Shown piece by piece: positions 10,922-26,455 of a stretch of DNA of 32,000 nt; positions within the stretch are counted from its first letter, which is position 1, and the number at the start of each line of letters is the position of its first letter. The position numbers were made by a program, and so were the translations under genes. The DNA is taken from the NCBI GenBank assembly GCA_001790095.1, contig MGBH01000001.1, positions 120,001-152,000 of the forward strand, written 5' to 3'. This stretch comes from Candidatus Saccharimonadota bacterium (GTDB taxonomy: Bacteria; Patescibacteriota; Microgenomatia; UBA1406; GWC2-37-13). A model generated the notes under the pieces. That model ran no database searches and had not been told where the DNA came from. It saw nothing but the letters and a program-made list of their open reading frames with translations.

Positions 10922-10988
10922 GCAGTTTTAATTGGGTTTGAATCTATTTGCCCCGCTCTTATATAGAATGTTGTGGTGGGTAAAAGCC

Positions 10989-11020
10989 CGAACCCTTTAC
11001 ATATAAATTTAGAATAGTAA
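10989..11020 (-). repeat. degenerate outlying copy of the island repeat core
   Basis: CGAACCCTTTACATATAAATTTAGAATAGTAA resembles the core GAACCTTTTACGTWCAAATTTAGTATGGTAA. Lies 8 nt downstream of the CBS gene stop. Confidence 0.4.
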
Positions 11021-11027
11021 CTTTTGA

Positions 11028-12170
11028 TTAACTATCTCTTCTTGCTTGTTTTTTTACTTGATTGATCGCTTCCTTAGTATTTTGCATGAAATCCCTATCC
11101 TTACTACTTGCAAAAAAAGTAGCAGAGTCTGTAGTAATTTTGAGTTTAACTTCAAATAAAATAGGTTTTCTATCAGGGTTATATACTGTTTTGGATGAAA
11201 AGCGCACTAATTGTATTTTATATTGCTTGTTTATCCATACAGCAGCTGATCTTATTTCACGGTTTATTTTCTTTTTTTCTTCTTCGCTTAATTCTTGGGG
11301 AAGTTTACTTATTATTGTAAGAAGTGCAGGAGTTTTTTGAGTAATCCAAACAGCAGTCTTAAGAAGATCATTTGTTGTATAAATAAATAAAGGCTGACGA
11401 TCTTTATCAACAATGACAATGGAATTGTATCTACTTGTGATTAGAGTTTGAATAACTTTATATGTATCTATCGGCTCATAGAGTTCATTAAAAATCGGTG
11501 AAACAAACTTCATCAATAGTTGGCTATCTTGTTTTATTTTTTCTACATCAAATGAATAATTCTTTACCTTAGAGCGTGTTGAAAAACGCTGTTTGTTCGA
11601 GGAAGAATAATAAGGAGCAAAAATATCTCTTTTTGTTACCATTCCTTTTATTTTTTTATTACTATCCACAACAATTAACCGCGAAACTGAATATTTTTGA
11701 AACGCCTGATATACATTTCCAATATTGCTTTTCTCTGGAATTGTTAAGATATTTCTCTTTGGCATATTTTCTAATATTTCCTCATAAAAAACACTATTTG
11801 ACATAAGGTTTTTGAGAAGGGATTTTACCTTCACAAGGCCAATCACTTTTTCACTTTCATCAAAAACAGGGAGGGTATAAAGTTTTAATTCGCTCATTAC
11901 TCTCAGAATCTCTCCAATTGGAGTATCGATGAGAATTCTTGGAGGGGTTATGAGGCAAGAACGAATAAGCGTTGAAGAATTATGCTTTCTATTAAAAAGG
12001 GTATTTTGAACTGTCACTAAGCCCATAAATTTTTTATCATCTCCATATACCAGAAGTGGAGTATGGGTATTTTGGAAGCGATTAACTATCGCTGATATTT
12101 TATTGTCAATATGACAAATGAGACGAGACGGTATAACTTGCATTTTGAATCCATTATTTAAATTATTCAT
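11028..12170 (-). CDS. four-CBS-motif protein with C-terminal HPF/RaiA (S30AE)-like domain
   Basis: 380 aa. Two CBS pairs (residues about 10-280). The C-terminal ~95 aa (KIQLVRFSS...ILFEVKLKITTDSATFFASSKDRDFMQNTKEAINQVKKQ) follows the beta-alpha-beta-beta-beta-alpha pattern of ribosome hibernation factors by eye. Confidence 0.75.
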   Translation of the reverse strand: MNNLNNGFKMQVIPSRLICHIDNKISAIVNRFQNTHTPLLVYGDDKKFMGLVTVQNTLFNRKHNSSTLIRSCLITPPRILIDTPIGEILRVMSELKLYTLPVFDESEKVIGLVKVKSLLKNLMSNSVFYEEILENMPKRNILTIPEKSNIGNVYQAFQKYSVSRLIVVDSNKKIKGMVTKRDIFAPYYSSSNKQRFSTRSKVKNYSFDVEKIKQDSQLLMKFVSPIFNELYEPIDTYKVIQTLITSRYNSIVIVDKDRQPLFIYTTNDLLKTAVWITQKTPALLTIISKLPQELSEEEKKKINREIRSAAVWINKQYKIQLVRFSSKTVYNPDRKPILFEVKLKITTDSATFFASSKDRDFMQNTKEAINQVKKQARRDS

Positions 12171-13119: not shown

Positions 13120-13764
13120 TCAGCTAAGTTCGAGCTCAAGATTTTTTATATTTTCAAAAAGTATAGAATGATCAACATATTTAATCAATTTTTTCTTCTC
13201 TAGTTTTATCATTTCAAGACTCGCTGTTTCCCTAGTGACTCCCACCAACGTAGCAATATCTTGTTGGGTAAAACGGTGTCCGACAAGTATTCCTTTATCT
13301 GTTGGTTCACCAAAATGTTTTGTTATATAAAGTAATATCGAAATAACTCTTCGGTAAGCGTCACTAAATACCAGATGCTCTACACGTTTTAGTGTTTCAG
13401 CGTAATCTTCTAGTAGTTCGCTCATAAGCTCGAAAATGACAGTTGGTTTATCCTTTATAAAATTGACTACTTTGTCACGGGGTGCGCGCCCGACTTCAAC
13501 TGGAGTCAATGCTTCAAAAAAGTAGACATTCGGAGTACCGTTGATTGCCCATACCATAGGAAAATAGGAAATTGGCTTGAGAATATGAAGCGATAATTCG
13601 TAGCCTGTTTTAGAAATTGTATATTGTCTAACATACCCTTTTAAGAGGCAAAAAATCCCTTGTGGATCATCATCAGCCCGGATAAGCATCTCATTTTTTT
13701 TATAGTTTCGAATACTGAATTGTTTGTAGAACGTTTCGAACTCTTTTGTATTGAGAGTATTCAT
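13120..13764 (-). CDS. Crp/Fnr-family transcriptional regulator (copy 1)
   Basis: 214 aa. cNMP-binding-like beta-roll followed by a C-terminal HTH (QQDIATLVGVTRETASLEMIKLEKKKLI). Confidence 0.9.
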   Translation of the reverse strand: MNTLNTKEFETFYKQFSIRNYKKNEMLIRADDDPQGIFCLLKGYVRQYTISKTGYELSLHILKPISYFPMVWAINGTPNVYFFEALTPVEVGRAPRDKVVNFIKDKPTVIFELMSELLEDYAETLKRVEHLVFSDAYRRVISILLYITKHFGEPTDKGILVGHRFTQQDIATLVGVTRETASLEMIKLEKKKLIKYVDHSILFENIKNLELELS

Positions 13765-15275: not shown

Positions 15276-16727
15276 ATGAAGAGAAAAATCATATGGAAAC
15301 ATCTAATGAGCAGAAGGTGGACAATCCTTCGTACTGAACTATTTACCAAGGGTTACGTAGAGCCACTAAAAAATTATATTGGTATTCCCAATAGAGAATT
15401 GTTAGTAACTAAAGAATTGGAAACAAGTTCTCTTTACAATAGTTTGGATAGCATGAATGAAATCTCGTTGGCACTATTGAATAAATTAAAGAATGATAAA
15501 GATTTTGGCTTACGTATTTATAAAGACTGCATTAAATCTTGCGAATATCTTGTACAAGTTTCCAAAGATGTATCTCAAGGGAACTTTAAATCCCTTTCTT
15601 CACAGACTCTTGTAAAAATTTTTGATATTTATGTAGATACAGCTTTAAACTTCACACCATTTTTAGCACTTCCTCCTAATTACGAAATGTATATTATTGA
15701 TGAGATAAATCAGAGCCTGGTTGAAAAAGTGGGAGACAGTAAGTCTGAAGAATATCTCCAAAAACTAATGAGTCTCAAAGAATACCCCTTTCAAATGCTA
15801 GAACAGATAGATTTAGCAAATATTGCATTAAGAATAAAACTTAAAACTGATATCAATAAAGCATTGATAGTTCATAAGCGCAAATACCAATGGTTATCCT
15901 GTTACAACTTTGATGAGGTAGAATTTTCATTAGAAGACTTCAAGAAAAGGTTAGAGATTCTACAGGAACTTTCTTTTTCAGAACTTAGTAACAAGGTTAA
16001 TTGTATGATTGAAAAGCTAAATTCGGACAAAAATGAGTTTCAGAGAGTTATAAATAAGCTTGGTTTGTCAAACGGACTAATAAATAAGATAAAGTTGTTG
16101 AGAGAGTTTGTTTTTCTAAGAACCTATAGGATTGAGATGAATTCCCAGTCCAATTTCTATCTCAAGCCCCTTTTAAGAGAAATTTCAGAACGGGGAAATA
16201 TATCGGTCAGGCAACTTGCTATGATGCTGTCTGATGAAATTAAAACAATGCTATTAGAAGGAAAAGTTCCAAATTCCGTAAACTTCAAAGATAGGGAGAA
16301 ATATGCAGTGTTTTGGTTACATAATGCAAAATATCATTATGCTTTTGGTTCTAAAGCAAAAAAGGTTATTTCAAAACAGATCGTTGACGTGAAAAAAGGC
16401 AACCAAGCTTTATTTGTAAAAGGGACAACCGCCTCACTTGGAAAGATAATTACTGGGAACGTAAGACTAGTAAACAAACATAATATGAGCGAATTTAAAA
16501 AAGGAGAAATCTTGGTTACTACTATGACTTCTCCAGAATTAGTTCCAGCTATGCATAAAGCTGCTGGGATTGTGACTGATGAGGGAGGTGTCACTTGTCA
16601 TGCGGCTATAGTATCCAGAGAATTTAACATTCCATGCATTGTGGGAACAGGTAACGCGACCAAAGTATTTAAAGATGGAGATTTTATTGAAGTTAATACC
16701 GAATTTGCTACAGCAAAAATTATATGA
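15276..16727 (+). CDS. PEP-utilising-enzyme mobile (swivel phospho-His) domain protein, copy 1, with unrecognised N-terminal region
   Basis: 483 aa. C-terminal GEILVTTMTSPELVPAMHKAAGIVTDEGGVTCHAAIVSREFNIPCIVG is a canonical PF00391-type swivel domain. The N-terminal ~390 aa are helical, with no ATP-grasp motifs seen. Confidence 0.85.
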   Translation: MKRKIIWKHLMSRRWTILRTELFTKGYVEPLKNYIGIPNRELLVTKELETSSLYNSLDSMNEISLALLNKLKNDKDFGLRIYKDCIKSCEYLVQVSKDVSQGNFKSLSSQTLVKIFDIYVDTALNFTPFLALPPNYEMYIIDEINQSLVEKVGDSKSEEYLQKLMSLKEYPFQMLEQIDLANIALRIKLKTDINKALIVHKRKYQWLSCYNFDEVEFSLEDFKKRLEILQELSFSELSNKVNCMIEKLNSDKNEFQRVINKLGLSNGLINKIKLLREFVFLRTYRIEMNSQSNFYLKPLLREISERGNISVRQLAMMLSDEIKTMLLEGKVPNSVNFKDREKYAVFWLHNAKYHYAFGSKAKKVISKQIVDVKKGNQALFVKGTTASLGKIITGNVRLVNKHNMSEFKKGEILVTTMTSPELVPAMHKAAGIVTDEGGVTCHAAIVSREFNIPCIVGTGNATKVFKDGDFIEVNTEFATAKII

Positions 16728-18519: not shown

Positions 18520-18576
18520 GTCCAGAGCAATGGAGATTACTCGAACCTTCTACGTACTAATTTAGCATGGTAAATT
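18520..18576 (-). repeat. island repeat copy R1 (57 nt)
   Basis: GTCCAGAGCAATGGAGATTACTCGAACCTTCTACGTACTAATTTAGCATGGTAAATT. Ends 9 nt from the stop of 18585..19163. Confidence 0.8.
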
Positions 18577-18584
18577 TCCAATTT

Positions 18585-19163
18585 TTATGTAACAATTTCT
18601 GTTGTACTTAAATCCTCAAGTTTTGAGATGAGTTCCTTCTTGCTATACATGGATGTATCAATCTGTTTCTCTTGAAAAATTCTCAGTCCCTCTATAATCC
18701 TTCGTGCATAAATAGCTTGCTTCTTCCACAAATAGCGTATCCTTACCTCATTCGCTTCAAATGTTTTTGAATAAATAACTAACTGTGCAAAGAAAGGTGC
18801 CATATTGATAAAGATATTAGATATATCCTTGATATCAACACTATGTACTTGAGATGATAGAAAAAAAGATCTGATTATAACAGTAACCCTTCCTTCTTCT
18901 ATATTGATAGTGTTGGGAAAAAAATCGAAAGGGAATCTATGCGTCGATATTGAAGCGAGTATCCTATTAGATTTTTTAACTAATTCAGCAACTATACTCT
19001 TACTCGTTTCCATGTTTACCTCACTTATCTTTACTGCATTCATGTTTTCTTTCCTTGTTAATATCTCCACTTTTTTCGTCAATACATCCATTTCATGCTG
19101 CAATGGTGGATTGTTCGGTAATACCGCAACCTTCGTTGGTTGATTATTTATTTTTATTTTCAT
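18585..19163 (-). CDS. hypothetical protein, possibly bacterial PH (bPH_2)-like
   Basis: 192-aa ORF. The segment EEGRVTVIIRSFFLSSQVHSVDIKDISNIFINMAPFFAQLVIYS resembles YdbT-type PH domains by eye only. Confidence 0.5.
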   Translation of the reverse strand: MKIKINNQPTKVAVLPNNPPLQHEMDVLTKKVEILTRKENMNAVKISEVNMETSKSIVAELVKKSNRILASISTHRFPFDFFPNTINIEEGRVTVIIRSFFLSSQVHSVDIKDISNIFINMAPFFAQLVIYSKTFEANEVRIRYLWKKQAIYARRIIEGLRIFQEKQIDTSMYSKKELISKLEDLSTTEIVT

Positions 19164-19329
19164 ATTATGTCTTCATAATGGTTGATACAATTCCACTTCA
19201 CTAACGCATTGAAAAGCCCGAAGGTGCTCATTTAATGCATGATTTTTTTTCTATGGGTTAATTATGCAGGTATAGCAATTATTTTATTGAATTAGATATG
19301 GAAAATCTGGTTCTTCCATGTTTCTATAG

Positions 19330-19509
19330 TTATGTATTATTATCAACTTTATTTCTCAAATCTGCTTCAATTTCATTTGCTTTTCCACGAACTTTATCTA
19401 TCGTTCCCTTAATTTTTTGACCAGACTTAATCTCAACATCTCCTTTAATTTGCTGAGTCATTCCTTTCACCTTTTGTCCAGTTATATCTAACTTTGTTTT
19501 GAAACCCAT
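19330..19509 (-). CDS. CsbD-like small stress protein (59 aa, below the ORF-track cutoff)
   Basis: Hand translation: MGFKTKLDITGQKVKGMTQQIKGDVEIKSGQKIKGTIDKVRGKANEIEADLRNKVDNNT. Shows the KG-repeat pattern of the CsbD family. Confidence 0.6.
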   Translation of the reverse strand: MGFKTKLDITGQKVKGMTQQIKGDVEIKSGQKIKGTIDKVRGKANEIEADLRNKVDNNT

Positions 19510-19533
19510 ATATTTAAATCAAATTTGTTAAAA

Positions 19534-19680
19534 TTATATTCGAAAACCTAATAAACGAGTCACCAATACAATTAGTGCGATGACAAGTAGTATATGAATA
19601 AGTCCACCTCCGACCTTGAGCGAGAATCCTCCCAACCATGAAATAACCAATATTAAGATTACAATATCTAGAAGTCCCAT
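19534..19680 (-). CDS. lmo0937/DUF5670-family micro membrane protein (48 aa, below the ORF-track cutoff)
   Basis: Hand translation: MGLLDIVILILVISWLGGFSLKVGGGLIHILLVIALIVLVTRLLGFRI. SD-like GGTTGGTGA upstream. Confidence 0.6.
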   Translation of the reverse strand: MGLLDIVILILVISWLGGFSLKVGGGLIHILLVIALIVLVTRLLGFRI

Positions 19681-20120
19681 ATTATTTTCACCAACCTTTC
19701 ATAAAATTCAATTTATAAGTCTTCGTTATTTCTCTATTTCTAAAGGTATTGTACGAATAAAGCAGGTATTAAACAGTCATTCCGCTTTCTTTTATTACGT
19801 AATCCAACTCACACAAATTAAGTAAGAAAGAATAGACCGAATAGTTTTTCCTCCCATGGTGATTTTGAAATATCTTTCCCTTCTGGTTGCGTCAGTTTTT
19901 GATAAATAGCATTTACAAAATAGTAGAGTAAATGGACCAGGATTTTGTATTCAGTTTCTCCACTTTATTTGTTTCTGGAGAAATTATCGCTTTTAGAGCC
20001 CCTTTATTTACATGAAAATAAACATTTTCATATAGGTATTTCAACGGTATTTTACATGATTAAGAACAAAAAATAACAATAAAACAAGCAAAGGTAAAGC
20101 TTCATGCTCAGCAAATTAAT

Positions 20121-20149
20121 TTGAAAGTAATATACTTATAGTATATAAT
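20121..20149 (+). promoter_or_regulatory. near-consensus promoter TTGAAA-N17-TATAAT placed for a leaderless transcript of the 430-aa gene
   Basis: -35 at 20121..20126 and -10 at 20144..20149. The ATG at 20156 begins 7 nt after the -10 and there is no room for an SD. Confidence 0.55.
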
Positions 20150-20155
20150 TACAGG

Positions 20156-21448
20156 ATGGATAGTCAAGAACGAAAGACACCAAGTAGTTATGATTCAGCT
20201 TCAATATCAGGGTTGGATTTAACCACTAAGTATCCAAATGCAGTTACGCATTTTAAAGGTGGAGAGTTTAGATTTGCTCATGGTAATCCACGTGCGCACT
20301 TTGCGTGTATGACAATAGCCTTGGGAGGAACTGGTGAAGGCTATAGAGAATGGTATGATGGGCAAATCAGGGATTTTAACGCTTTGAGGGAGGAGTTAGG
20401 ACTACCCCGTGAGCTTTCATACTATCTTTCCCGACTTGCACGGCCCGTCTTTACCGAGGGTGGTGGTTTTGTAAGATTAAACATATTTGACATGTATAAG
20501 TTGTTATATCACGCACCAGCCGAATTTAAACACGAAATGGAAGCACGATTATTGGATACAGCCAGATTATCTAAGGCGTTAATAGGCAAGGGATGTGAAT
20601 TACCCCCTATTGGTGGAATTAGTCTTTCATGTGAAACGAGATATGGTTTTCAAGAGGGAACTGTAGATATAATATTTAGCGCTGACACTCCTCCTGAAGT
20701 AGAAGCAGCTGCTGATGTTGAAATAAAGATAAAAAAACCTAAAAAAGAACACCTCTCTTTTATACCTGAAAGGCATAAGGTGCGCAACTTAATCCCAAAG
20801 AGACTGCCCCTATGGGCTGTAAGGTTGGTACCAGAGGAAGGTGGCGATGGGAATGTGAGGATTGGGATACATGCAAGTCAAAGGATAGTGGAAGAAACCG
20901 GCACTATACCAATACGAGCAGCTCACATTTTAGCTGCATTTCCAAGAGACAAGGATAAGGACCTGGTAATACCAGGAGACAATACTTCAATGATAGAAAA
21001 TGTAAGAAAATTACTTCTAGCATTTGGTTCCTCAAAAAAAGGTTTAGATAGGGCTATTTTATCTGTAGCTAATTTAGATGAATCAATAGATCCAAAGGTT
21101 GTGCCGTATTTGTACATTCTAAGTGGAATTCCGGGAACGTATATTGTTAAACGTATTGAACAAGCTTTAAACGGATTTCCATTTGAAGAATTTACGTTAA
21201 TTTTGGCGATCCAAATGTTGCAAAAAATGGGGTACAAAAATCTATATGCAATAGGCAAACCCAACTCAGTTTTTAGTCGTTATTTAGATCCAATTGAAGC
21301 GTATCCCTATTCATTCGGTTTGTTTCATGCAGGCACTGCTCTTGGATTATCCGAGCAAGGAAGAGAAAGACTTTTTCAATGTGGATTTGCGCCGGTTGAA
21401 ATTTTGTTAGAGAGTCAAAAAACACCAATAAAAAAAGTATACAGATAA
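20156..21448 (+). CDS. 430-aa orphan protein, no family recognised
   Basis: Long ORF in an otherwise minus-strand block. The 5' two thirds are visibly more GC-rich than the surroundings. I found no motif I can name. Confidence 0.7.
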   Translation: MDSQERKTPSSYDSASISGLDLTTKYPNAVTHFKGGEFRFAHGNPRAHFACMTIALGGTGEGYREWYDGQIRDFNALREELGLPRELSYYLSRLARPVFTEGGGFVRLNIFDMYKLLYHAPAEFKHEMEARLLDTARLSKALIGKGCELPPIGGISLSCETRYGFQEGTVDIIFSADTPPEVEAAADVEIKIKKPKKEHLSFIPERHKVRNLIPKRLPLWAVRLVPEEGGDGNVRIGIHASQRIVEETGTIPIRAAHILAAFPRDKDKDLVIPGDNTSMIENVRKLLLAFGSSKKGLDRAILSVANLDESIDPKVVPYLYILSGIPGTYIVKRIEQALNGFPFEEFTLILAIQMLQKMGYKNLYAIGKPNSVFSRYLDPIEAYPYSFGLFHAGTALGLSEQGRERLFQCGFAPVEILLESQKTPIKKVYR

Positions 21449-21480
21449 TTCCTTTCGCCAATATCCTAAACAATAAATAT

Positions 21481-21536
21481 TCAGAGCGATGGAAAACGCT
21501 CTAACCTTCTACGTATAAATTTAGTATAGTAAATTT
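21481..21536 (-). repeat. island repeat copy R2
   Basis: TCAGAGCGATGGAAAACGCTCTAACCTTCTACGTATAAATTTAGTATAGTAAATTT. Contains the 6-bp hairpin AGAGCG/CGCTCT. Ends 5 nt from the stop of 21542..22783. Confidence 0.75.
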
Positions 21537-21541
21537 GATTA

Positions 21542-22783
21542 TTAACTCATTCTGTTTTTTATTTCTTCTTCCACTTGATCGATAGGTTTACCATATCTCA
21601 TTTGAGAATCATTTTTAAACTTAGTGAGATTAACAGTATTTTCTTGATTGTTCTCTTTGGTTGTATTAATTTTTTTTATTTCAGTAATACTTCCGTTTTC
21701 TAAGGTTTTCAAAATTGCATGAAATTTCTTGAGTTCTGATATAGTTTTTATATCAATACCTATTACCTGAGAAATATCTTCAATATCATCTTTTATTGAT
21801 CTAAACATCACAATTGTGCCAGATCTTAAAACCTCATATTTTAATAAGGAATTTATTTGTTTCGCTCGAGACGATAATATTGTAATTGCAAGATTGTATA
21901 GACCGCTATATCGCATTAAGTCTATAATTACTTGAGGATTCCATAACCCAACTTCGTCTATATATAAAGATATTTGAACTTTTGATGTTATTCGAATATT
22001 TCTGAATAAAGTTAATAATTTTGAGAACAGTAATGAACTTATAATTCTATTAGCTTCTTTATCGTAATAATATTCGCTAAAATCGAGTAAAATTGTTTTT
22101 TTATCCTGGATTAGTTGTTGAAAGTTAACTGTATCATCAGATTGACATACTATATTTCTTAATCTTTTGTCAGACACAAATCTACTAAATTTTGACACGA
22201 TGTAATCAAGCACTTCAGACTTATGAAAATCAGAGGTTTGGGTAATTTGTTTAGTCCAATAGTTTTTGACTATCGGATCAGTAATTTTTTCAACTAGTTT
22301 ATTTACATAAATACTGTCAGTAAGACATCTCAATAATTCAAGAAACGTTGGCTTTTTATCATAAAAAATGGTCATTATTGCATTTCTTACTGCATGATCA
22401 AATCGAGGACCAATAACACCCGTTCTTTGAGGATCGTAGAGATCATACATTAATTTGAGTACTACATTTGCGACCTCTTTTTTATCAAATTCGTTTTGTG
22501 CTTGAAATATATTTAAGCCAACAGGAAGTTTTTCATTCCACACATTTATGTAGACAATATTTTTAAGCGCTGCTTCAGACGCATTACTAATGATTCTATT
22601 GGATAAGTTTCCATAAGGATCGATGACGACTGATGGCTGCCTTGCTATAATATCCTGCATTATTAAATCAGAAAAATAATGAGTAATACCGTTTCCTGGA
22701 AGTCCAGTAATAAAGGTGTTTCTTAGTCTATCTAATGATGATAATTCAATAGCAGTTTTTTTATCAAGAAGAATGTTCGTCAT
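21542..22783 (-). CDS. HerA/FtsK-VirD4-like P-loop NTPase with degenerate Walker A
   Basis: 413 aa. ITGLPGNGITHYF occupies the Walker A position (Ile where Lys is expected), VVIDPYGN matches the DUF87/T4CP pattern, and Walker B-like SLYIDEVG is present. Confidence 0.7.
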   Translation of the reverse strand: MTNILLDKKTAIELSSLDRLRNTFITGLPGNGITHYFSDLIMQDIIARQPSVVIDPYGNLSNRIISNASEAALKNIVYINVWNEKLPVGLNIFQAQNEFDKKEVANVVLKLMYDLYDPQRTGVIGPRFDHAVRNAIMTIFYDKKPTFLELLRCLTDSIYVNKLVEKITDPIVKNYWTKQITQTSDFHKSEVLDYIVSKFSRFVSDKRLRNIVCQSDDTVNFQQLIQDKKTILLDFSEYYYDKEANRIISSLLFSKLLTLFRNIRITSKVQISLYIDEVGLWNPQVIIDLMRYSGLYNLAITILSSRAKQINSLLKYEVLRSGTIVMFRSIKDDIEDISQVIGIDIKTISELKKFHAILKTLENGSITEIKKINTTKENNQENTVNLTKFKNDSQMRYGKPIDQVEEEIKNRMS

Positions 22784-22923
22784 ACGTTTAAAAAGAACTG
22801 ATAATTTTCATTATATAAAATAAGAAGTTAACTATCTATTAGGTTCGAACCCTTGGTTTGAATTTATATAACAAGGAAACTTATTCAATTTACTTATTTG
22901 AGTTCATTCTTATTTTATTAAAT

Positions 22924-22970
22924 CTTCCCAAGTTAGAACCTTTTACGTTCAAGTTTAGTATGGTAAATTT
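22924..22970 (-). repeat. island repeat copy R3
   Basis: CTTCCCAAGTTAGAACCTTTTACGTTCAAGTTTAGTATGGTAAATTT. The last four codons (NLPY) and the stop of 22955..23998 lie inside the repeat. Confidence 0.75.
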
Positions 22971-23998
22971 CTTTTTAAGATTGTGACGATTCCTTTATCT
23001 GCGTTTACTTCAACTAAATCTCCATTTTGTAATACTTCTGACGCATTTTTTGTTCCTACAATACAGGGCTTTTTAAACTCTCTTGCAATGATTGCCGCAT
23101 GACAGGTAATTCCACCCTCATCAGTAATAATTGCAGCTGATTTCTTCATCACAGGGACAAAATCAGGCATTGTCATGGGCGAGACAAGAATTTCACCTTT
23201 TTTGAAATCATTCATATGCTTCAATGCCATAACTTTACGTACTAGTCCTTTAGCACATCCAAGAGAGGCAGCGTTTCCTTTAATATGTGTAATTTTTTTA
23301 GAAGAGTGAGATAAATTTAGTTTTATGTTATATTTTGATTCAACAAGCTCTAACTGCTCTGGTCGAAATAGTATTTCATTTGTGAATATAAATCCTTTTG
23401 CTCGGCGACGGAGTTCTTCTAAAGAGGGTATTTTATCTGATCGAATTTCTTCAATTGTTAAAACTTGAGAGTATTCGGCGACATTAGAGTAAATTTGTCT
23501 TAGAGACTCCCGGATTAAATTATCCAAATCATCCGTGAGTGTGACGGTTGATTTTTTTAATTCCAGTATTTGAGATACGTTAAGTCCTACCAGCTTTTCA
23601 AGGTCTGATTCTCCAATTTCCCACATAGGTAATAACCATCGGTATGCGCTTTGGAACAAATCTAAAAAAAGCAGTAGTTCTTCTTTATCTAATATTACCT
23701 TTTTGCTTAAATAGTTATTTATATATTCTAAATCAGAAATAACGTGTGATTTAATTTCTTGAATAAAGTTTTTGTCTTTTTTTACTTGATTTAATGTTGA
23801 ATTGCGAGACCAATTTAATCCATCTATGTCGTAATAACTTGTAACAGTATCATCGTGACGAATAAATACAACGTATGGAAAAGATTTATTTAATTGGTTA
23901 TTCCAAGGTTTGGGAGTTTTTGCTTCACCTTTATACCATATTTCCAGCCAAGGCATAGTAAATTCTCTTGTAAATATTTTTTCGTATAGTTTTTTCAT
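22955..23998 (-). CDS. PEP-utilising-enzyme mobile (swivel) domain protein, copy 2
   Basis: 347 aa. C-terminal GEILVSPMTMPDFVPVMKKSAAIITDEGGITCHAAIIAREFKKPCIVG. The N-terminal region is unrecognised. Confidence 0.85.
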   Translation of the reverse strand: MKKLYEKIFTREFTMPWLEIWYKGEAKTPKPWNNQLNKSFPYVVFIRHDDTVTSYYDIDGLNWSRNSTLNQVKKDKNFIQEIKSHVISDLEYINNYLSKKVILDKEELLLFLDLFQSAYRWLLPMWEIGESDLEKLVGLNVSQILELKKSTVTLTDDLDNLIRESLRQIYSNVAEYSQVLTIEEIRSDKIPSLEELRRRAKGFIFTNEILFRPEQLELVESKYNIKLNLSHSSKKITHIKGNAASLGCAKGLVRKVMALKHMNDFKKGEILVSPMTMPDFVPVMKKSAAIITDEGGITCHAAIIAREFKKPCIVGTKNASEVLQNGDLVEVNADKGIVTILKRNLPY

Positions 23999-24146
23999 TG
24001 AATTGAATTTGATTTATTAAGTTCATATTTAATACGAGTCATATTTGATACATTATATCAATTTGGTTCGAACCCTCCGTTTAAATCGTTTGGACAAGTA
24101 AAACAACTCTATTTTTTGTTTTAGTCTAGTCTTCTTGTTCAAAGTT

Positions 24147-24191
24147 TTCCCGAAGTTAGAACTTTTTTTAGATTGTTCTAAAAGGTTAAAG
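24147..24191 (-). repeat. degenerate island repeat copy R4
   Basis: TTCCCGAAGTTAGAACTTTTTT matches R3's TTCCCAAGTTAGAACCTTTT; the rest is decayed. Confidence 0.45.
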
Positions 24192-24206
24192 TAGTGCTTT
24201 AATTTT

Positions 24207-24236
24207 TCTTCTATCCTAAGTCAAGAGGGGAGGATT
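24207..24236 (-). repeat. near-exact duplicate of the tRNA-Tyr 3' end plus 3' flank (att-like)
   Basis: TATCCTAAGTCAAGAGGGGAGGATTC (24211..24236) versus TATCCTGAGTCCAGAGGGGAGGATTC (25988..26013): 24/26 identical, same orientation. Confidence 0.75.
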
Positions 24237-24340
24237 CACGTTCGTCACCTCGTTCCTCAGTACTAACTGCCAGTAATCCTCACTTCGTATCGGAAACTGG
24301 CAGTTGAGCGAACCTCTACGGTTCTCATCCTTAAAATGCA
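24237..24340. other. GC-rich structured island of unknown nature (candidate ncRNA or recombination-site remnant)
   Basis: Perfect 10-bp stem AACTGCCAGT/ACTGGCAGTT around a 21-nt loop. Local GC is clearly above the AT-rich intergenic background. Abuts a strong terminator. Confidence 0.35.
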
Positions 24341-24341
24341 T

Positions 24342-24373
24342 AAAAAAAGACAGCACTTCGGCTGTCTTTTTTT
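24342..24373. terminator. bidirectional intrinsic terminator
   Basis: A7-GACAGC-ACTTCG-GCTGTC-T7, a GC-rich stem flanked by A and T runs. Lies 55 nt downstream of the HAD gene stop. Confidence 0.75.
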
Positions 24374-24377
24374 ATGA

Positions 24378-24434
24378 GTCCAGAACAATGGAGAGTATCA
24401 GAACCTTTTATGCTCAAATTTAGTTCAATTAAAT
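24378..24434 (-). repeat. island repeat copy R5
   Basis: GTCCAGAACAATGGAGAGTATCAGAACCTTTTATGCTCAAATTTAGTTCAATTAAAT. Overlaps the stop of the HAD gene. Confidence 0.75.
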
Positions 24435-25025
24435 AAGGTTTTGTTCAAGGAGATATTTTTCAAGTTCCTTGGGAGTAGTAAATAGAATAGTATTGATTCC
24501 TGATAATTTTGCTGGCTCCAGCATTATCTGTTTATCGTCAATAAACACAGTCTGTTCTGGTTTTGCGTTGCTTTTATTGAGAGCAAATTCGTATATCTTT
24601 GGATTGGGTTTTCTGACACCCACTTCATGTGAAAAAATCCCTCCTTTGAATAGTTTGAGAAAATTAAACTTTTTATCAAGCGTATCAACACGTTCTTTTA
24701 CATTATCCGATAGATAGTAGAGGTTATACTTTTTGGAAAGCTTCGTAATAATCAGCTTAGTATCTGGGATTATCTCATATCCATCAATCCACTGTTTCTC
24801 AAGGATGTTTGCAGATTCTTTTAAATGAAGTCTTTCAATTACAAGTCTCCAAAACTCATCCCGAGTAATTTTTGATTCGCGATAAAAAGACCCTATTTCT
24901 CCATCAATAACCTCTTTTACTTCATTTTCAGGGATTCTATACGAAAGACTTAACTCTCTTATAAATTTCTTTGTTCCATTAGTAAATAAAACTCCACCAA
25001 GGTCGAATAAAAAAGTCGTAATCAT
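24429..25025 (-). CDS. HAD-superfamily hydrolase (subfamily IA, YihX-like DxG variant)
   Basis: 198 aa. Motif I FLFDLGGVLF, motif III K in VRKPNPKIY, motif IV FIDD. Confidence 0.9.
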   Translation of the reverse strand: MITTFLFDLGGVLFTNGTKKFIRELSLSYRIPENEVKEVIDGEIGSFYRESKITRDEFWRLVIERLHLKESANILEKQWIDGYEIIPDTKLIITKLSKKYNLYYLSDNVKERVDTLDKKFNFLKLFKGGIFSHEVGVRKPNPKIYEFALNKSNAKPEQTVFIDDKQIMLEPAKLSGINTILFTTPKELEKYLLEQNLI

Positions 25026-25076
25026 TAAATAAATTATATCAAGAAGGTTCGAACGTCGTTCATTCGTCTTGTCAAA

Positions 25077-25133
25077 GTCCAGAGCAATTAAGGGCGTTAG
25101 AACCTTTTATGTACAAATTTAGTATGGTAAATT
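25077..25133 (-). repeat. island repeat copy R6
   Basis: GTCCAGAGCAATTAAGGGCGTTAGAACCTTTTATGTACAAATTTAGTATGGTAAATT; 45/57 identical to R1 by hand alignment. This is the only strong copy not at a gene 3' end. Confidence 0.8.
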
Positions 25134-25237: not shown

Positions 25238-25888
25238 ATGAATGAAATAGATACAACTAAGGAATTTGAACGTTTCTATAAGCAATTCCCCACTCGAACG
25301 TATAAAAAGAATGAAGTGCTCATTCGAGCGGACGACAATCCTCTAGGTATTTTTTGTTTGACAAAAGGATATGTGAGACAATACTCCATTTCTAAAGCGG
25401 GATTGGAATTAACACTCCACATCCTAAAACCAATTCAGTATTTTCCCAAAATTTGGGCGTTAAGTAAAGTCCCCAATATTTATATTTTTGAAGCACTTAC
25501 AGAAGTTGAGGTAATACGCGCACCCAAAGAGCAATTAATTGGCTTTATTAAAGATAAACCTCTCCTTCTTACCGAACTAATAAACCGTTTATTAGTAGAT
25601 TACTCAGAAACCTTGGCTCGAATTGAAAACTTAGTATTCAGTGATGCATATCGTAAGGTTATTTCTATATTGTTGTATATAGCAAAACATTTTGGGGAAA
25701 AGAGAAACAATGGAATCGTGATTACTTATCGTTTTACTCAACAAGATATATCAAACTTAGTTGGCGTCGCAAGAGAAACCGCAAGTAATGAAATCTCAAA
25801 ATTGGAGAAGAAAAAACTATTAAAATACATTGACCATACTATGGTACTTGAGAATCTCCAGGCATTAGAAAATGAGCTGTCACATTAA
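25238..25888 (+). CDS. Crp/Fnr-family transcriptional regulator (copy 2)
   Basis: 216 aa, collinear with copy 1 and roughly two thirds identical by eye. Confidence 0.9.
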   Translation: MNEIDTTKEFERFYKQFPTRTYKKNEVLIRADDNPLGIFCLTKGYVRQYSISKAGLELTLHILKPIQYFPKIWALSKVPNIYIFEALTEVEVIRAPKEQLIGFIKDKPLLLTELINRLLVDYSETLARIENLVFSDAYRKVISILLYIAKHFGEKRNNGIVITYRFTQQDISNLVGVARETASNEISKLEKKKLLKYIDHTMVLENLQALENELSH

Positions 25889-25996
25889 TAGATTGAGGTG
25901 AATTATATAGATAAACTAGACTGTCATTGCCTAACGATTCGCTATTCACATAATGAATATATGAAATAACTGAAAGGAGTATTCTTTTATCCTGAG

Positions 25997-26079
25997 TCCA
26001 GAGGGGAGGATTCGAACCTCCGTAGGGAAAACCCAGCAGATTTACAGTCTGCCCCCGTTGGCCACTTGGGTACCTCTGG
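25997..26079 (-). tRNA. tRNA-Tyr: tRNA-Tyr (anticodon GTA), class II long variable arm, CCA not encoded
   Basis: Hand fold: acceptor CCAGAGG/CCTCTGG, U8 A9, D-stem CCC/GGG, anticodon stem GCAGA/TCTGC with loop CTGTAAA, variable arm GGG-TTTT-CCC, T-arm GGAGG-TTCGAAT-CCTCC, discriminator A. Confidence 0.9.
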
Positions 26080-26091
26080 TTGATCTACTAA

Positions 26092-26343
26092 TTATATTAA
26101 ATTTTTTGATTGAATGCTCTTTTTTTCCAAATATCCCTTCGGACTCTTGAGATAAAATTCTCTCTTATAAGCTTTCTTTTTTTCTTCAAATTTCTCTTTA
26201 TAAATTATTTTCCACGGTCTAAAAGGCTTCGTTGATTTTGTCCATCCGGCGTTATGATCTTTAATTCTTTTTTCTAGATTCGATGTAACCCCTATATAAA
26301 ATCGATTTACAACCCCACTTTTTAAAATATAGACATAATACAT
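26092..26343 (-). CDS. small GIY-YIG nuclease-family protein
   Basis: Start moved to MYYVYILKSG (ATG at 26343); the 13-codon extension in the track ORF reads through the tRNA-derived duplicate. Motifs YVYIL...FYIGVT...R...E are present. Confidence 0.85.
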   Translation of the reverse strand: MYYVYILKSGVVNRFYIGVTSNLEKRIKDHNAGWTKSTKPFRPWKIIYKEKFEEKKKAYKREFYLKSPKGYLEKKSIQSKNLI

Positions 26344-26355
26344 ATAAGTAATACG

Positions 26356-26404
26356 CCGTTGGCCAAGCCGAAGGCTACCCATTGGGTCTTGGGTACCTCT
26401 GGTT
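26356..26404 (-). repeat. partial duplicate of the tRNA-Tyr 5' end (acceptor and D-arm) with a 22-nt insertion
   Basis: CTTGGGTACCTCTGGTT at 26388..26404 is identical to 26065..26081 (17/17). CCGTTGGCCA at 26356..26365 is identical to 26055..26064. The two blocks are separated by AGCCGAAGGCTACCCATTGGGT. Confidence 0.8.
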
Positions 26405-26455
26405 TTAGAAAATTATTATATCAAAAATAATCTTCGATATGGTACACTTAACTTT

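Follow-up and report, generated by a model that had tools for sequence, protein, structure and literature searches.

A 57-nt repeat recurs at the joints between small cargo modules on the 3′ side of a tRNA-Tyr gene in the window, by which we mean the whole 32,000-nt stretch of contig MGBH01000001.1 (positions 120,001 to 152,000; G+C 34%). We read its host as Candidatus Roizmanbacteria, of the candidate phyla radiation (CPR), from the RIFOXYB2 samples (contigs MGBP01000017.1 and MGBF01000001.1). We lean toward the view that the repeat is an att-like junction between modules that were inserted serially at the 3′ end of tRNA-Tyr, and we think it probable to the same modest degree that these small modules form a polar array 3′ of this gene in a Roizmanbacteria genome. 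What we observed directly is the anatomy of the repeat, its link to tRNA-Tyr, the strict polarity of its copies, breakpoints between genomes at its edges, its interchangeability with the tRNA 3′ end, and no RNA fold.

The sense of the element is that of the window minus strand throughout. The 57-nt unit reads ATTTACYATACTAAATTTGWGCRTARAAGGTTCKRAY-(15-20 nt)-YCTGGAC, and a degenerate 30-nt pattern from its 5′ part, TTACYATRCTAAAYTNNNNNNTARAAGGTT, matched the window five times against 0.00 expected from shuffles. An nhmmer profile of 35 copies found exactly six in the window (R0 to R3, R5, and R6; Table 1), all on the minus strand and 0.9 to 15 kb downstream of tRNA-Tyr. The repeat family proposed in the initial annotation is therefore real, and its single orientation was read correctly. 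R6, the copy nearest to the tRNA (0.9 kb), fits the family profile best, and recomputing its identity to R1 returned the same 45 of 57 positions. Two shorter stretches had been listed as decayed copies. The one at 10989-11020 is indeed a copy, the partial R0, whereas the one at 24147-24191 is part of a distinct spacer module of ~83 nt in which the profile gives no match. R3 (22924-22970), listed as a strong copy, is one in its left arm and core, but its tail is of the spacer type: it is a truncated hybrid in which the left arm and a GGTTCTAAC core are joined to a tail like that at 24137-24219. The first ~9 nt of R5 are degenerate. A seventh, decayed left arm lies ~450 nt past the left end of the window in the same orientation, ~26.5 kb from the tRNA.

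The proximity to stop codons described earlier was also recovered. Open reading frames (ORFs) 18585-19163 and 21542-22783 stop 5-10 nt ahead of a copy, with R1 starting 8 nt past the first stop and R2 5 nt past the second. ORFs 22955-23998 and 24429-25025 overlap a copy; the former has its final four codons and stop (AAT TTA CCA TAC TAA) inside R3, as annotated, and the stop of the latter is overlapped by R5. R0 lies directly 3′ of the stop of CBS-domain ORF 11028-12170, 15 kb from the tRNA, and R6 has no upstream minus-strand ORF and faces the start of a plus-strand Crp-family gene. Where ORFs 21542-22783 and 20156-21448 converge, the tRNA-like half of R2 (21481-21504) is now an 8-bp hairpin with a T-rich tail, and R2 appears, from its sequence, to have been recruited as a terminator.

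The last ~28 nt of the unit (AGGTTCKAAY...CTCTGGAC or ...YCTGGAC) reproduce, in diverged form, the part of tRNA-Tyr that runs from the T-loop to its 3′ end. Local alignments against tRNA-Tyr and its flank always ran from AGGTTC (T-stem and T-loop) through CTCTGGAC into the flank, the z score being 3.9 with R1 and 6.3 with R5 and reaching 9.6 with a copy in L060 (L numbers designate loci outside the window). The earlier claim of a likeness to tRNA-Tyr thus stands from the T-loop to the 3′ end (z 3.9-9.6), but its alignment to the anticodon loop is unsupported. YCTGGAC is common to all tRNA-Tyr genes and repeat copies. The first 28 nt of the unit (ATTTACYATACTAAATTTGWGCRTARA), by contrast, are conserved without ever being part of the tRNA alignment; they go with the end of the upstream cargo gene in all cases and in many directly abut its stop codon. 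We also compared the T-stem of each genome's tRNA with its own repeat class and rejected a match between them as inconsistent. Xer/dif-type sites, including those of integrative mobile elements exploiting Xer (IMEX) and of pdif modules, are 28 bp long, with two 11-bp arms around a 6-bp center, and are recognized by XerC and XerD; the first 11 nt of the unit agree with the XerD arm of E. coli dif at 9 of 11 positions, which serves as a lead only.

All copies in the window lie on the 3′ side of tRNA-Tyr and are co-oriented with it, and the 10.9 kb examined on its 5′ side contain no copy. Reading downstream from the tRNA, we found the Crp-family gene (antisense), R6, a HAD hydrolase gene, R5, a terminator-like hairpin, a second kind of copy of the tRNA-Tyr 3′ end, spacer modules, a gene with a PEP-utilizer domain, R3, a gene of no assigned function, R2, an orphan ORF on the other strand, small ORFs, ORF 18585-19163, R1, ~7 kb of further genes, and R0. 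Exact-pattern scans placed the element in 63 other loci, most of them from Roizmanbacteria-like genomes, comprising 9 stretches of species-representative genomes and 54 metagenome stretches, and the profile counted 130 copies in these loci and the window together. ARAGORN predicted 9 tRNAs in 341 kb of loci, 8 of which are tRNA-Tyr(GTA) and 1 tRNA-Gln; tRNA-Tyr was upstream of the copies and co-oriented with them in all 8 loci that have it, at a distance of 0.9-5.9 kb. In the locus with tRNA-Gln (L025), both copies end in ...CAAC like that tRNA and not in ...GGAC, and the sequences are suggestive only of copy ends that follow the end of tRNA-Gln. None of the 34 multi-copy loci (87 copies) had copies on both strands. 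In six contigs of 40-380 kb, the copies matching the exact pattern formed a single stretch per contig, in polar arrays rather than scattered over random intergenic sites; within the scope of the exact pattern, the element is not a dispersed high-copy repeat. Copy quality in the window genome falls with distance from the tRNA, from the best copy (0.9 kb) through a partial one (15 kb) to a remnant (~26.5 kb); by our own ranking of the copies, Spearman's rho is ~0.7 with n = 7, which is suggestive only.

The polarity of the array is independent of transcription. A co-oriented ORF lies just upstream of 69 of 105 copies, with a median gap of 8 nt from stop to repeat (20 nt or less in 57 of the 69); upstream of the other 36 the gene is divergent, and at 7 copies both neighbors run antisense to the repeat. 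The close succession of ORF and repeat at those 69 copies is what would be expected of a tRNA-half-like tag in the 3′ untranslated region (UTR) that steers mRNA processing, stability, or termination, one of the explanations put forward in the initial annotation. Such an RNA element could also draw on the hairpin with a T run that follows some copies, the terminator-like hairpin in R2, and the T-loop-like motif in the unit. However, RNAalifold found no conserved fold across 32 diverse copies (-0.8 kcal/mol, 4 pairs, 0 covarying or compensatory pairs), the acceptor strand is left without a pairing partner, and one third of the copies face a divergent gene. Apart from noise, the matches of a permissive Rfam search of the window and 12 loci were all to tRNAs, 5S rRNA, or a fluoride riboswitch, and none was to the repeat. 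We therefore regard a function as an RNA element as highly improbable. The riboswitch (L038 1478-1544, minus strand; 39.9 bits, above the gathering score) and the 5S rRNA gene (L025 7504-7621, minus strand) are unrelated to the repeat. A hand-drawn anticodon-arm-like hairpin in the left arm was rejected, as its frequent G-to-A and T-to-A changes are uncompensated. A sigma-70 promoter within the unit was likewise rejected: the scan put no site in any copy and found 26 sites in the region against 36 expected. Direct reading of the unit revealed no conserved GTTRRRY/RYYYAAC pair.

Next, we compared the flanks of the copies between loci. Homology ended at the 5′ edge of the unit, after GGTTCT, or just past CTGGAC. 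The same CoA-binding protein gene and repeat were followed by four different modules (L042/L058, L026, L031, and L041). Cassette content thus varies among related genomes, the check that the initial annotation had proposed, with breakpoints at the repeat edges. The DNA behind a genuine tRNA-Tyr in L042 and L047 is found behind a repeat copy in L012, L019, and L015, with homology starting at CTGGAC: for L047 and L015 it extends over 1.4 kb at 90% identity, and L042 shares with L012 and L019 a 180-nt module that comes after tRNA-Tyr in the one and after the repeat in the others. The tRNA-Tyr 3′ end and the repeat are interchangeable before the same downstream DNA, and, read from the alignments, the relation of these loci is that of an empty to an occupied site. 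Unit positions 1-18 always went with the upstream gene, and positions 19-56 with either side. Hybrids were fused at GGTTCKAAC cores, as in R3 and in L051:7093. The picture of single-gene cassettes with a tRNA-derived tag is therefore borne out for the tag, the tRNA-Tyr anchor (8 of 8), the polarity, and the variable content, but the modules do not always hold a single gene.

If the repeat works at the DNA level as an attachment-type (att-like) site, a module would enter at the YCTGGAC end of the tRNA gene or of an earlier copy, and every module would bear its own copy of the repeat at its far end. Copies would consequently stack head to tail in the orientation of the tRNA, with the oldest farthest away. 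Insertion would be site-specific, and its catalyst would act in trans, as a recombinase or nuclease from outside the array, which encodes none itself. The GGTTCKAAC cores that recur in the spacers could be further exchange points. An att-like site would explain the anchor, the polarity irrespective of gene direction, and the half-tRNA make-up of the repeat, as well as its interchangeability with the tRNA end, its tight fit to the ends of the cargo, and the accessory type of that cargo. It also fits the decay of copies with distance.

Table 1. Repeat copies, tRNA, cargo genes, and spacer elements in the window
Feature	Position	Strand	Basis or remark
GIY-YIG nuclease ORF (26092-26382) in nuclease/tRNA-fragment block	26092..26402	-	Pfam PF01541; weak matches to homing-endonuclease families
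tRNA-Tyr(GTA), array anchor	25997..26079	-	ARAGORN; Rfam tRNA, 54.7 bits
Crp/Fnr-family regulator, antisense to array	25238..25888	+	Pfam
R6	25077..25133	-	nhmmer 25132-25077, E=1.4e-17, profile 1-56; pattern match
Spacer unit 3, short form, directly after R6	25033..25076	-	CGTTCGAACC box (25046-25055) and TGATATAAT (25033-25041)
HAD-family hydrolase	24429..25025	-	Pfam
R5	24378..24434	-	nhmmer 24424-24378, E=6.5e-12, profile 10-56; tRNA alignment z=6.3
Terminator-like hairpin AAAAAAAGACAGCCGAAGTGCTGTCTTTTTTT, A and T runs on both sides	24342..24373	.	direct reading
Second-kind copy of tRNA-Tyr 3′ end	24206..24332	-	repeat family D14; homologous modules elsewhere
Spacer unit 2, TTAGGATAG...AAAAAGTTCTAAC...TTTGAAC, ~83 nt	24137..24219	-	repeat profile gives no match
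Spacer unit 3, upstream of ORF 22955-23998	24052..24136	-	ends in GGTTCGAACC box (24065-24074) and TGATATAAT (24052-24060)
PEP-utilizing mobile domain protein	22955..23998	-	Pfam, NCBIfam; inverted repeat I1; paralogue of 15276-16727
R3	22932..22970	-	nhmmer 22968-22932, E=4.6e-9, profile 1-37; sequence reading
Spacer after R3, upstream of ORF 21542-22783	22810..22931	-	GGTTCGAACC box (22842-22851) and promoter-like TAGATA-N17-TATAAT
Cargo without assigned function	21542..22783	-	C-terminal half of PHROG 5156, E=7e-26
R2	21480..21536	-	nhmmer 21534-21480, E=2.5e-12; terminator-like site 21504-21481
Orphan ORF, 430 aa	20156..21448	+	G+C 0.39-0.41 vs 0.27-0.33 in neighbors
Cargo without assigned function	18585..19163	-	ORF call, family scans
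R1	18520..18577	-	nhmmer 18575-18520, E=2.1e-14; tRNA alignment z=3.9
R0, partial (left arm and core)	10986..11024	-	nhmmer 11020-10986, E=1.4e-4, profile 3-37; pattern match with 2 mismatches

The sequences that come after CTGGAC fall into few families, each of which can follow either the repeat or a genuine tRNA-Tyr. The full intergenic layout, found in L012, L050, L057, and the window, runs from a stop codon through the repeat to an 85-105-nt module ending in GGTTCKAAC-N20-CTGGAC, then to a module ending in GGTTCGAAC(C) and TGnTAWAAT, and on to the next ORF. The GGTTCGAAC boxes at 22842, 24065, and 25046, first noted for their palindromic form, gave five strand-hits against 0.13 expected, and the layout identifies them as the ends of promoter-bearing spacers. 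Spacer unit 2 shares only a GTTCTAAC core with the repeat, and its type of module follows the repeat in many other genomes. The architecture of unit 3 was likewise found in L012, L050, and L057, and its short form lies upstream of the HAD-family ORF here and in L059. The spacer at 22810-22931 (family D4) is 71% identical to 24056-24114.

The second kind of tRNA-Tyr 3′-end copy (24206-24332) consists of a T-stem-like helix (AAGGA...TCCTC) around ~85 nt of inserted hairpins, followed by GAATCCTCCCCTCTTGAC and 14 nt of flank; at 91% identity to 25982-26013, the stretch 24206-24237 is a near-exact 32-nt repeat of the tRNA end and flank. Modules of this type occur in L003, L016, L020, L021, and L022, with T-stems that match the tRNA-Tyr of their own genome. 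Rfam gave no match for the module in the window, and a hammerhead-like reading of its CTGAGGA motif was rejected on a misfit of the core together with that result. Taken over 24220-24332 (minus strand; also from L016 1497, from L064 ~1590, and in L003, L020, L021, and L022), the helix surrounds a variable structured insert and the module ends in GAATCCTCCCCTCTKGAC. This helix varies in step with the T-stem of the genome's own tRNA-Tyr (GGAGGA/TCCTCC versus GGAAGGA/TCCTTCC), and an inner motif, AGTTTCCGAYAMGAAGTGAGGA(A)TTACT, is common to the modules of the window, L016, and L064. The hairpin at 24342-24373, absent from the output of the simple terminator scan, has a nearly identical counterpart behind the genuine tRNA-Tyr in L021, and in the flank comparison the terminator type that follows R5 was the one found after genuine tRNA-Tyr genes of other genomes. 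GC-rich mini-hairpins (for example, TCCTTCGACAAGCTCAGGATAAACT and GCCTGCCTGCCGGTAGGCAGG) were also seen within the T-loop-like core of copies or just past CTGGAC in L030, L036, L040, L044, L047, L056, L057, and L063. They may represent a miniature mobile hairpin family in these AT-rich genomes.

Several results weigh against serial insertion at an att-like site. Breakpoints occur at several sites (the 5′ edge, near position 18/19, the cores, and the 3′ edge), a pattern no less compatible with homologous exchange between conserved blocks than with a single crossover site. In every class, 5-7 extra bases stand between the T-loop and the acceptor strand of the tRNA-like half, implying that the copies descend from a diverged common ancestor and are not fresh duplications. 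Modules bring promoter-like sites of their own and can contain several genes, unlike classical cassettes. In the window's own population, the array was identical in all 24 contigs examined for each of three exact flanking or cargo proteins, so these exact-protein look-ups showed no strain-level cassette variation in the window's species. The comparison contigs were mostly short metagenome assemblies that often end at the repeat, and some of the pairs with different downstream sequences could be products of faulty or chimeric assembly. An all-against-all BLAST of the long loci yielded few pairs informative about clean insertions or deletions of a gene with its repeat, owing to the shortness of the contigs.

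The search for an enzyme points the same way. No integrase family was found by Pfam among the window ORFs scanned, in agreement with the initial annotation, and no integrase family, of the kind that it proposed to look for just outside the window, was seen in the 10 kb on either side. Among the 464 ORFs of the loci, regular expressions for tyrosine- and serine-recombinase motifs, a crude and weak test, produced no credible match. Pfam searches of 150 cluster representatives, also a weak test, showed no recombinase among the families listed, those with at least two members. ORFs 20156-21448 and 21542-22783 were considered as hidden recombinases and rejected, the first being an orphan without a family or PDB match and the second matching only an uncharacterized PHROG. 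Since no recombinase was found, both scars of serial insertion and an integron-like system, as first suggested, are retained as explanations.

No recombinase, multiple breakpoints, and no mobility in the window's population together make recombinase-free exchange a serious rival, although we hold it to be the less probable account, at the level of a tentative possibility. The repeat and spacer units 2 and 3 would then be a mosaic of portable homology, serving as arms for ordinary homologous recombination, for example after DNA uptake; no site-specific enzyme would be required, and the blocks might also provide promoters and terminators. Consistent with this, breakpoints lie at the edges of every block of identity and at no single position, the deletion hybrids R3 and L051:7093 are joined at GGTTCKAAC cores, the right half of the repeat goes with either the upstream or the downstream side, TGnTAWAAT promoter-like sites occur in the spacers, and neither the regular-expression nor the Pfam searches of the loci found a recombinase. 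However, portable homology alone leaves unexplained why the array starts at tRNA-Tyr in 8 of 8 loci, why half of the repeat is a tRNA end, and why there are zero inverted copies. Arms of 18-57 nt are also short for efficient homologous recombination, and the 28-nt left arm is conserved beyond what a homology arm needs.

Nuclease genes are found at some of the joints. The genes next to the tRNA in the window encode a GIY-YIG protein and hydrogenase-related proteins. The GIY-YIG ORF is flanked by the intact tRNA on one side and, on the other, by a 5′ fragment of tRNA-Tyr (26356-26402) that bears a promoter and contains a GC-rich hairpin of 21 nt in the D-loop region; L020 and L021 have the same layout with more hairpin inserts. 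From this arrangement, it looks like a nuclease gene entered the tRNA gene and supplied a substitute for its 5′ part. Written out, the block at 26092-26423 (minus strand) contains the tRNA fragment as CCAGAGGTACCCAAG[21-nt GC-rich hairpin]TGGCCAACGG, with a TGATATAAT of its own. The ~96-aa GIY-YIG family is present in 14 loci; it adjoins tRNA-Tyr on the upstream side in the window, L020, and L021, and elsewhere starts ~70-150 nt past the CTGGAC of a repeat. In loci of the L038, L041, L057, and L060 type, GIY-YIG is followed by another tRNA-Tyr-like 3′ end. A PD-(D/E)XK nuclease (PF11645, E=1.6e-23) lies just upstream of tRNA-Tyr in L009 (371-742) and L029 (6462-6833), and one site upstream of tRNA-Tyr is thus held by two unrelated nuclease families. 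Nucleases and hairpin inserts at the joints mark tRNA-Tyr-like sequence as a hot spot for several kinds of insertion.

A homing mechanism would make these nucleases the agents: GIY-YIG or PD-(D/E)XK enzymes would cut tRNA-Tyr-like DNA, repair would copy the nuclease gene and cargo in, and the repeats would be target mimics or leftovers. The placement of GIY-YIG ORFs at tRNA-Tyr or after the CTGGAC of a repeat in 14 loci, several of them followed by a tRNA-Tyr-like 3′ end, the PF11645 nuclease at the same spot before tRNA-Tyr in L009 and L029, and the weak matches of the window GIY-YIG protein to homing-endonuclease families all favor it. We nevertheless consider it unlikely, as most junctions lack a nuclease gene, the 96-aa GIY-YIG proteins have no recognizable DNA-binding domain, and the nuclease genes may be mere passengers of the same hot spot.

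The left arm of the unit opens with the palindrome ATTTA-N6-TAAAT, a geometry typical of binding sites for dimeric proteins. It is CRP-like in its 5-N6-5 spacing, the GGTTCGAACC box lies just upstream of promoter-like sites, and Crp-family cargo is common, with two genes in the window and one cluster of 8 genes in 7 loci. The palindrome or the box could accordingly be an operator bound by the recurrent Crp/Fnr-family regulators. We give this regulon-type explanation very little credence. The next promoter lies anywhere from ~45 to >200 nt from the unit, whereas the upstream stop is at a fixed distance. In addition, a transcription-factor site would leave the 57-nt conservation, the tRNA half, the polarity, and the breakpoints unexplained, and the enrichment of the palindrome by itself in the window is marginal (7 matches against 3.4 expected).

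Returning to the att-like junction, a bolder form of it, possible but in our judgment doubtful, is a gene-cassette platform of CPR bacteria in which the tRNA-Tyr 3′ end is the insertion site, the 57-nt tRNA-mimic repeat plays the part of attC, and the enzyme is encoded off the platform. This enzyme would be, just as tentatively, either an unrecognized recombinase or the small GIY-YIG and PD-(D/E)XK nucleases sited at the joints. If true, this would be an integron-like system without an integron integrase, in bacteria of very small genomes.

Tandem insertion at the ends of tRNA and tmRNA genes is already known, as are cassette arrays. The ssrA islands of Dehalococcoides lie in tandem on the 3′ side of one small-RNA gene, where they form a hot spot of strain-specific genes; each boundary joins a 20-bp repeat of the gene 3′ end to a 15-bp motif without a match to ssrA, the insertion point was inferred to be in the T-loop region, and the islands measure ~12 kb, with a serine-recombinase integration module in 16 of 31 and no integration genes in some (McMurdie et al. 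2011, PMC3146451). The array described here resembles them in its tandem modules at the 3′ side of a small-RNA gene and, as far as its divergence allows, in boundaries that pair a sequence like the gene end with a non-matching motif. It differs in its target (tRNA-Tyr), its CPR hosts, its modules of 0.45-4 kb, and the lack of any recombinase found by our crude searches of ~65 loci. Unlike the near-exact 20 bp of the ssrA islands, its tRNA-like part is diverged, with the extra bases noted above, and its other arm is 28 nt long and highly conserved. In cis-mobilizable elements (CIMEs) and tandem accretion, integrase-less elements that keep their att sites pile up at the 3′ end of a tRNA gene (reviewed in PMC5704250). 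As in tandem tRNA/tmRNA elements, our array starts at the tRNA 3′ end and extends to one side only (8 of 8 loci; in the window, the 10.9 kb 5′ of the tRNA contain no copy), and related genomes have occupied and empty sites (L047/L015; L042/L012, L019). CIMEs are decayed large elements with near-exact att sites, whereas here the modules are compact, often with one gene ending a few bases from the repeat, and the repeat family is common to many genomes.

Like integrons, the array has repeats of one orientation at the 3′ ends of short cassettes, mostly of a single gene, ORFs that end at or in the repeat, and accessory cargo (GNAT acetyltransferases, orphan ORFs) whose content varies at a fixed platform. 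Unlike in integrons, this platform is a tRNA gene end with no intI beside it (window ORFs and 10 kb on either side), and many modules come with promoter-like sites of their own. attC sites are imperfect inverted repeats (R′′-L′′...L′-R′) in which structure rather than sequence is conserved. The 57-nt repeat, in contrast, is conserved in sequence and has neither an imperfect palindrome nor a conserved fold. Repetitive extragenic palindromic (REP) sequences and bacterial interspersed mosaic elements (BIMEs) are palindromic and dispersed genome-wide in both orientations. Our element is like them in that short conserved extragenic blocks form a mosaic, often just past stop codons; it is unlike them, and unlike miniature inverted-repeat transposable elements (MITEs), in being confined to one stretch per contig (six contigs of 40-380 kb, exact pattern) in a single orientation, with no hairpin or palindrome. 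Our literature searches found no account of this element in CPR bacteria, nor of the form it takes, in which a conserved 57-nt tRNA-mimic junction, tiny modules, an integrase-less platform, nucleases at the joints, and CPR hosts come together.

The cargo looks, judging from its gene families, to be of an accessory type. Over the loci, it includes five GNAT acetyltransferases, HAD hydrolases, a beta-lactamase, methyltransferases, and an orphan ORF. For ORF 20156-21448, a 5.8-billion-protein database returned only the protein itself among 8000 scored word-matched candidates, and no family or PDB match was found. ORF 21542-22783 had no match in Pfam, NCBIfam, or PDB, and the only PHROG that it matched is uncharacterized. 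A Crp/Fnr protein 82.5% identical to that of the window occupies the same antisense position between two copies in L060. Two pairs of paralogues, one member being proximal to the tRNA and the other farther out, were seen in the window: Crp/Fnr (25238-25888 and 13120-13764) and the PEP-utilizer-domain proteins (22955-23998 and 15276-16727), both at 71-73% DNA identity. Each Crp paralogue has its own orthologues beside copies elsewhere (L060 for one; L003 and L008 for the other).

Across genomes, the unit is ~85-95% identical, and the proteins shared with the window are 45-90% identical; on these figures, the 57-nt unit is either constrained or recently exchanged. The nine genome stretches are labeled mostly Roizmanbacteria, with one Paceibacterota and several Gammaproteobacteria. 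Four repeat-carrying loci labeled as uncultured Gammaproteobacteria/Pseudomonadales (L002, L005, L006, and L009) have a G+C of 33-37%, and at least L002, L005, and L009 encode homologues of window genes, the best conserved at up to ~84% identity. All four are probably mis-binned or mislabeled CPR contigs. A phage origin was rejected, as the element had no match among IMG/VR viral contigs. In many metagenome loci (for example, L016, L024, L026, L043, L046, L053, and L065), contigs start or stop ~30-110 nt from a copy. The repeat thus interrupts short-read assemblies, and some junction comparisons may be affected by chimeric assembly.

CPR bacteria have tiny genomes and few recognized mobile elements, and little is known of how they gain and shuffle accessory genes. 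The repeat, in which many contigs end, is probably a cause of fragmented or chimeric CPR bins, and its 57-nt sequence could be used as a marker of a variable gene pool in metagenomes. If the enzyme is not a classical integrase, it would represent a new DNA-insertion system with a small, defined target. Overall, a tRNA-anchored, one-directional cassette array would be a concrete mechanism of gene flux for a large part of bacterial diversity.

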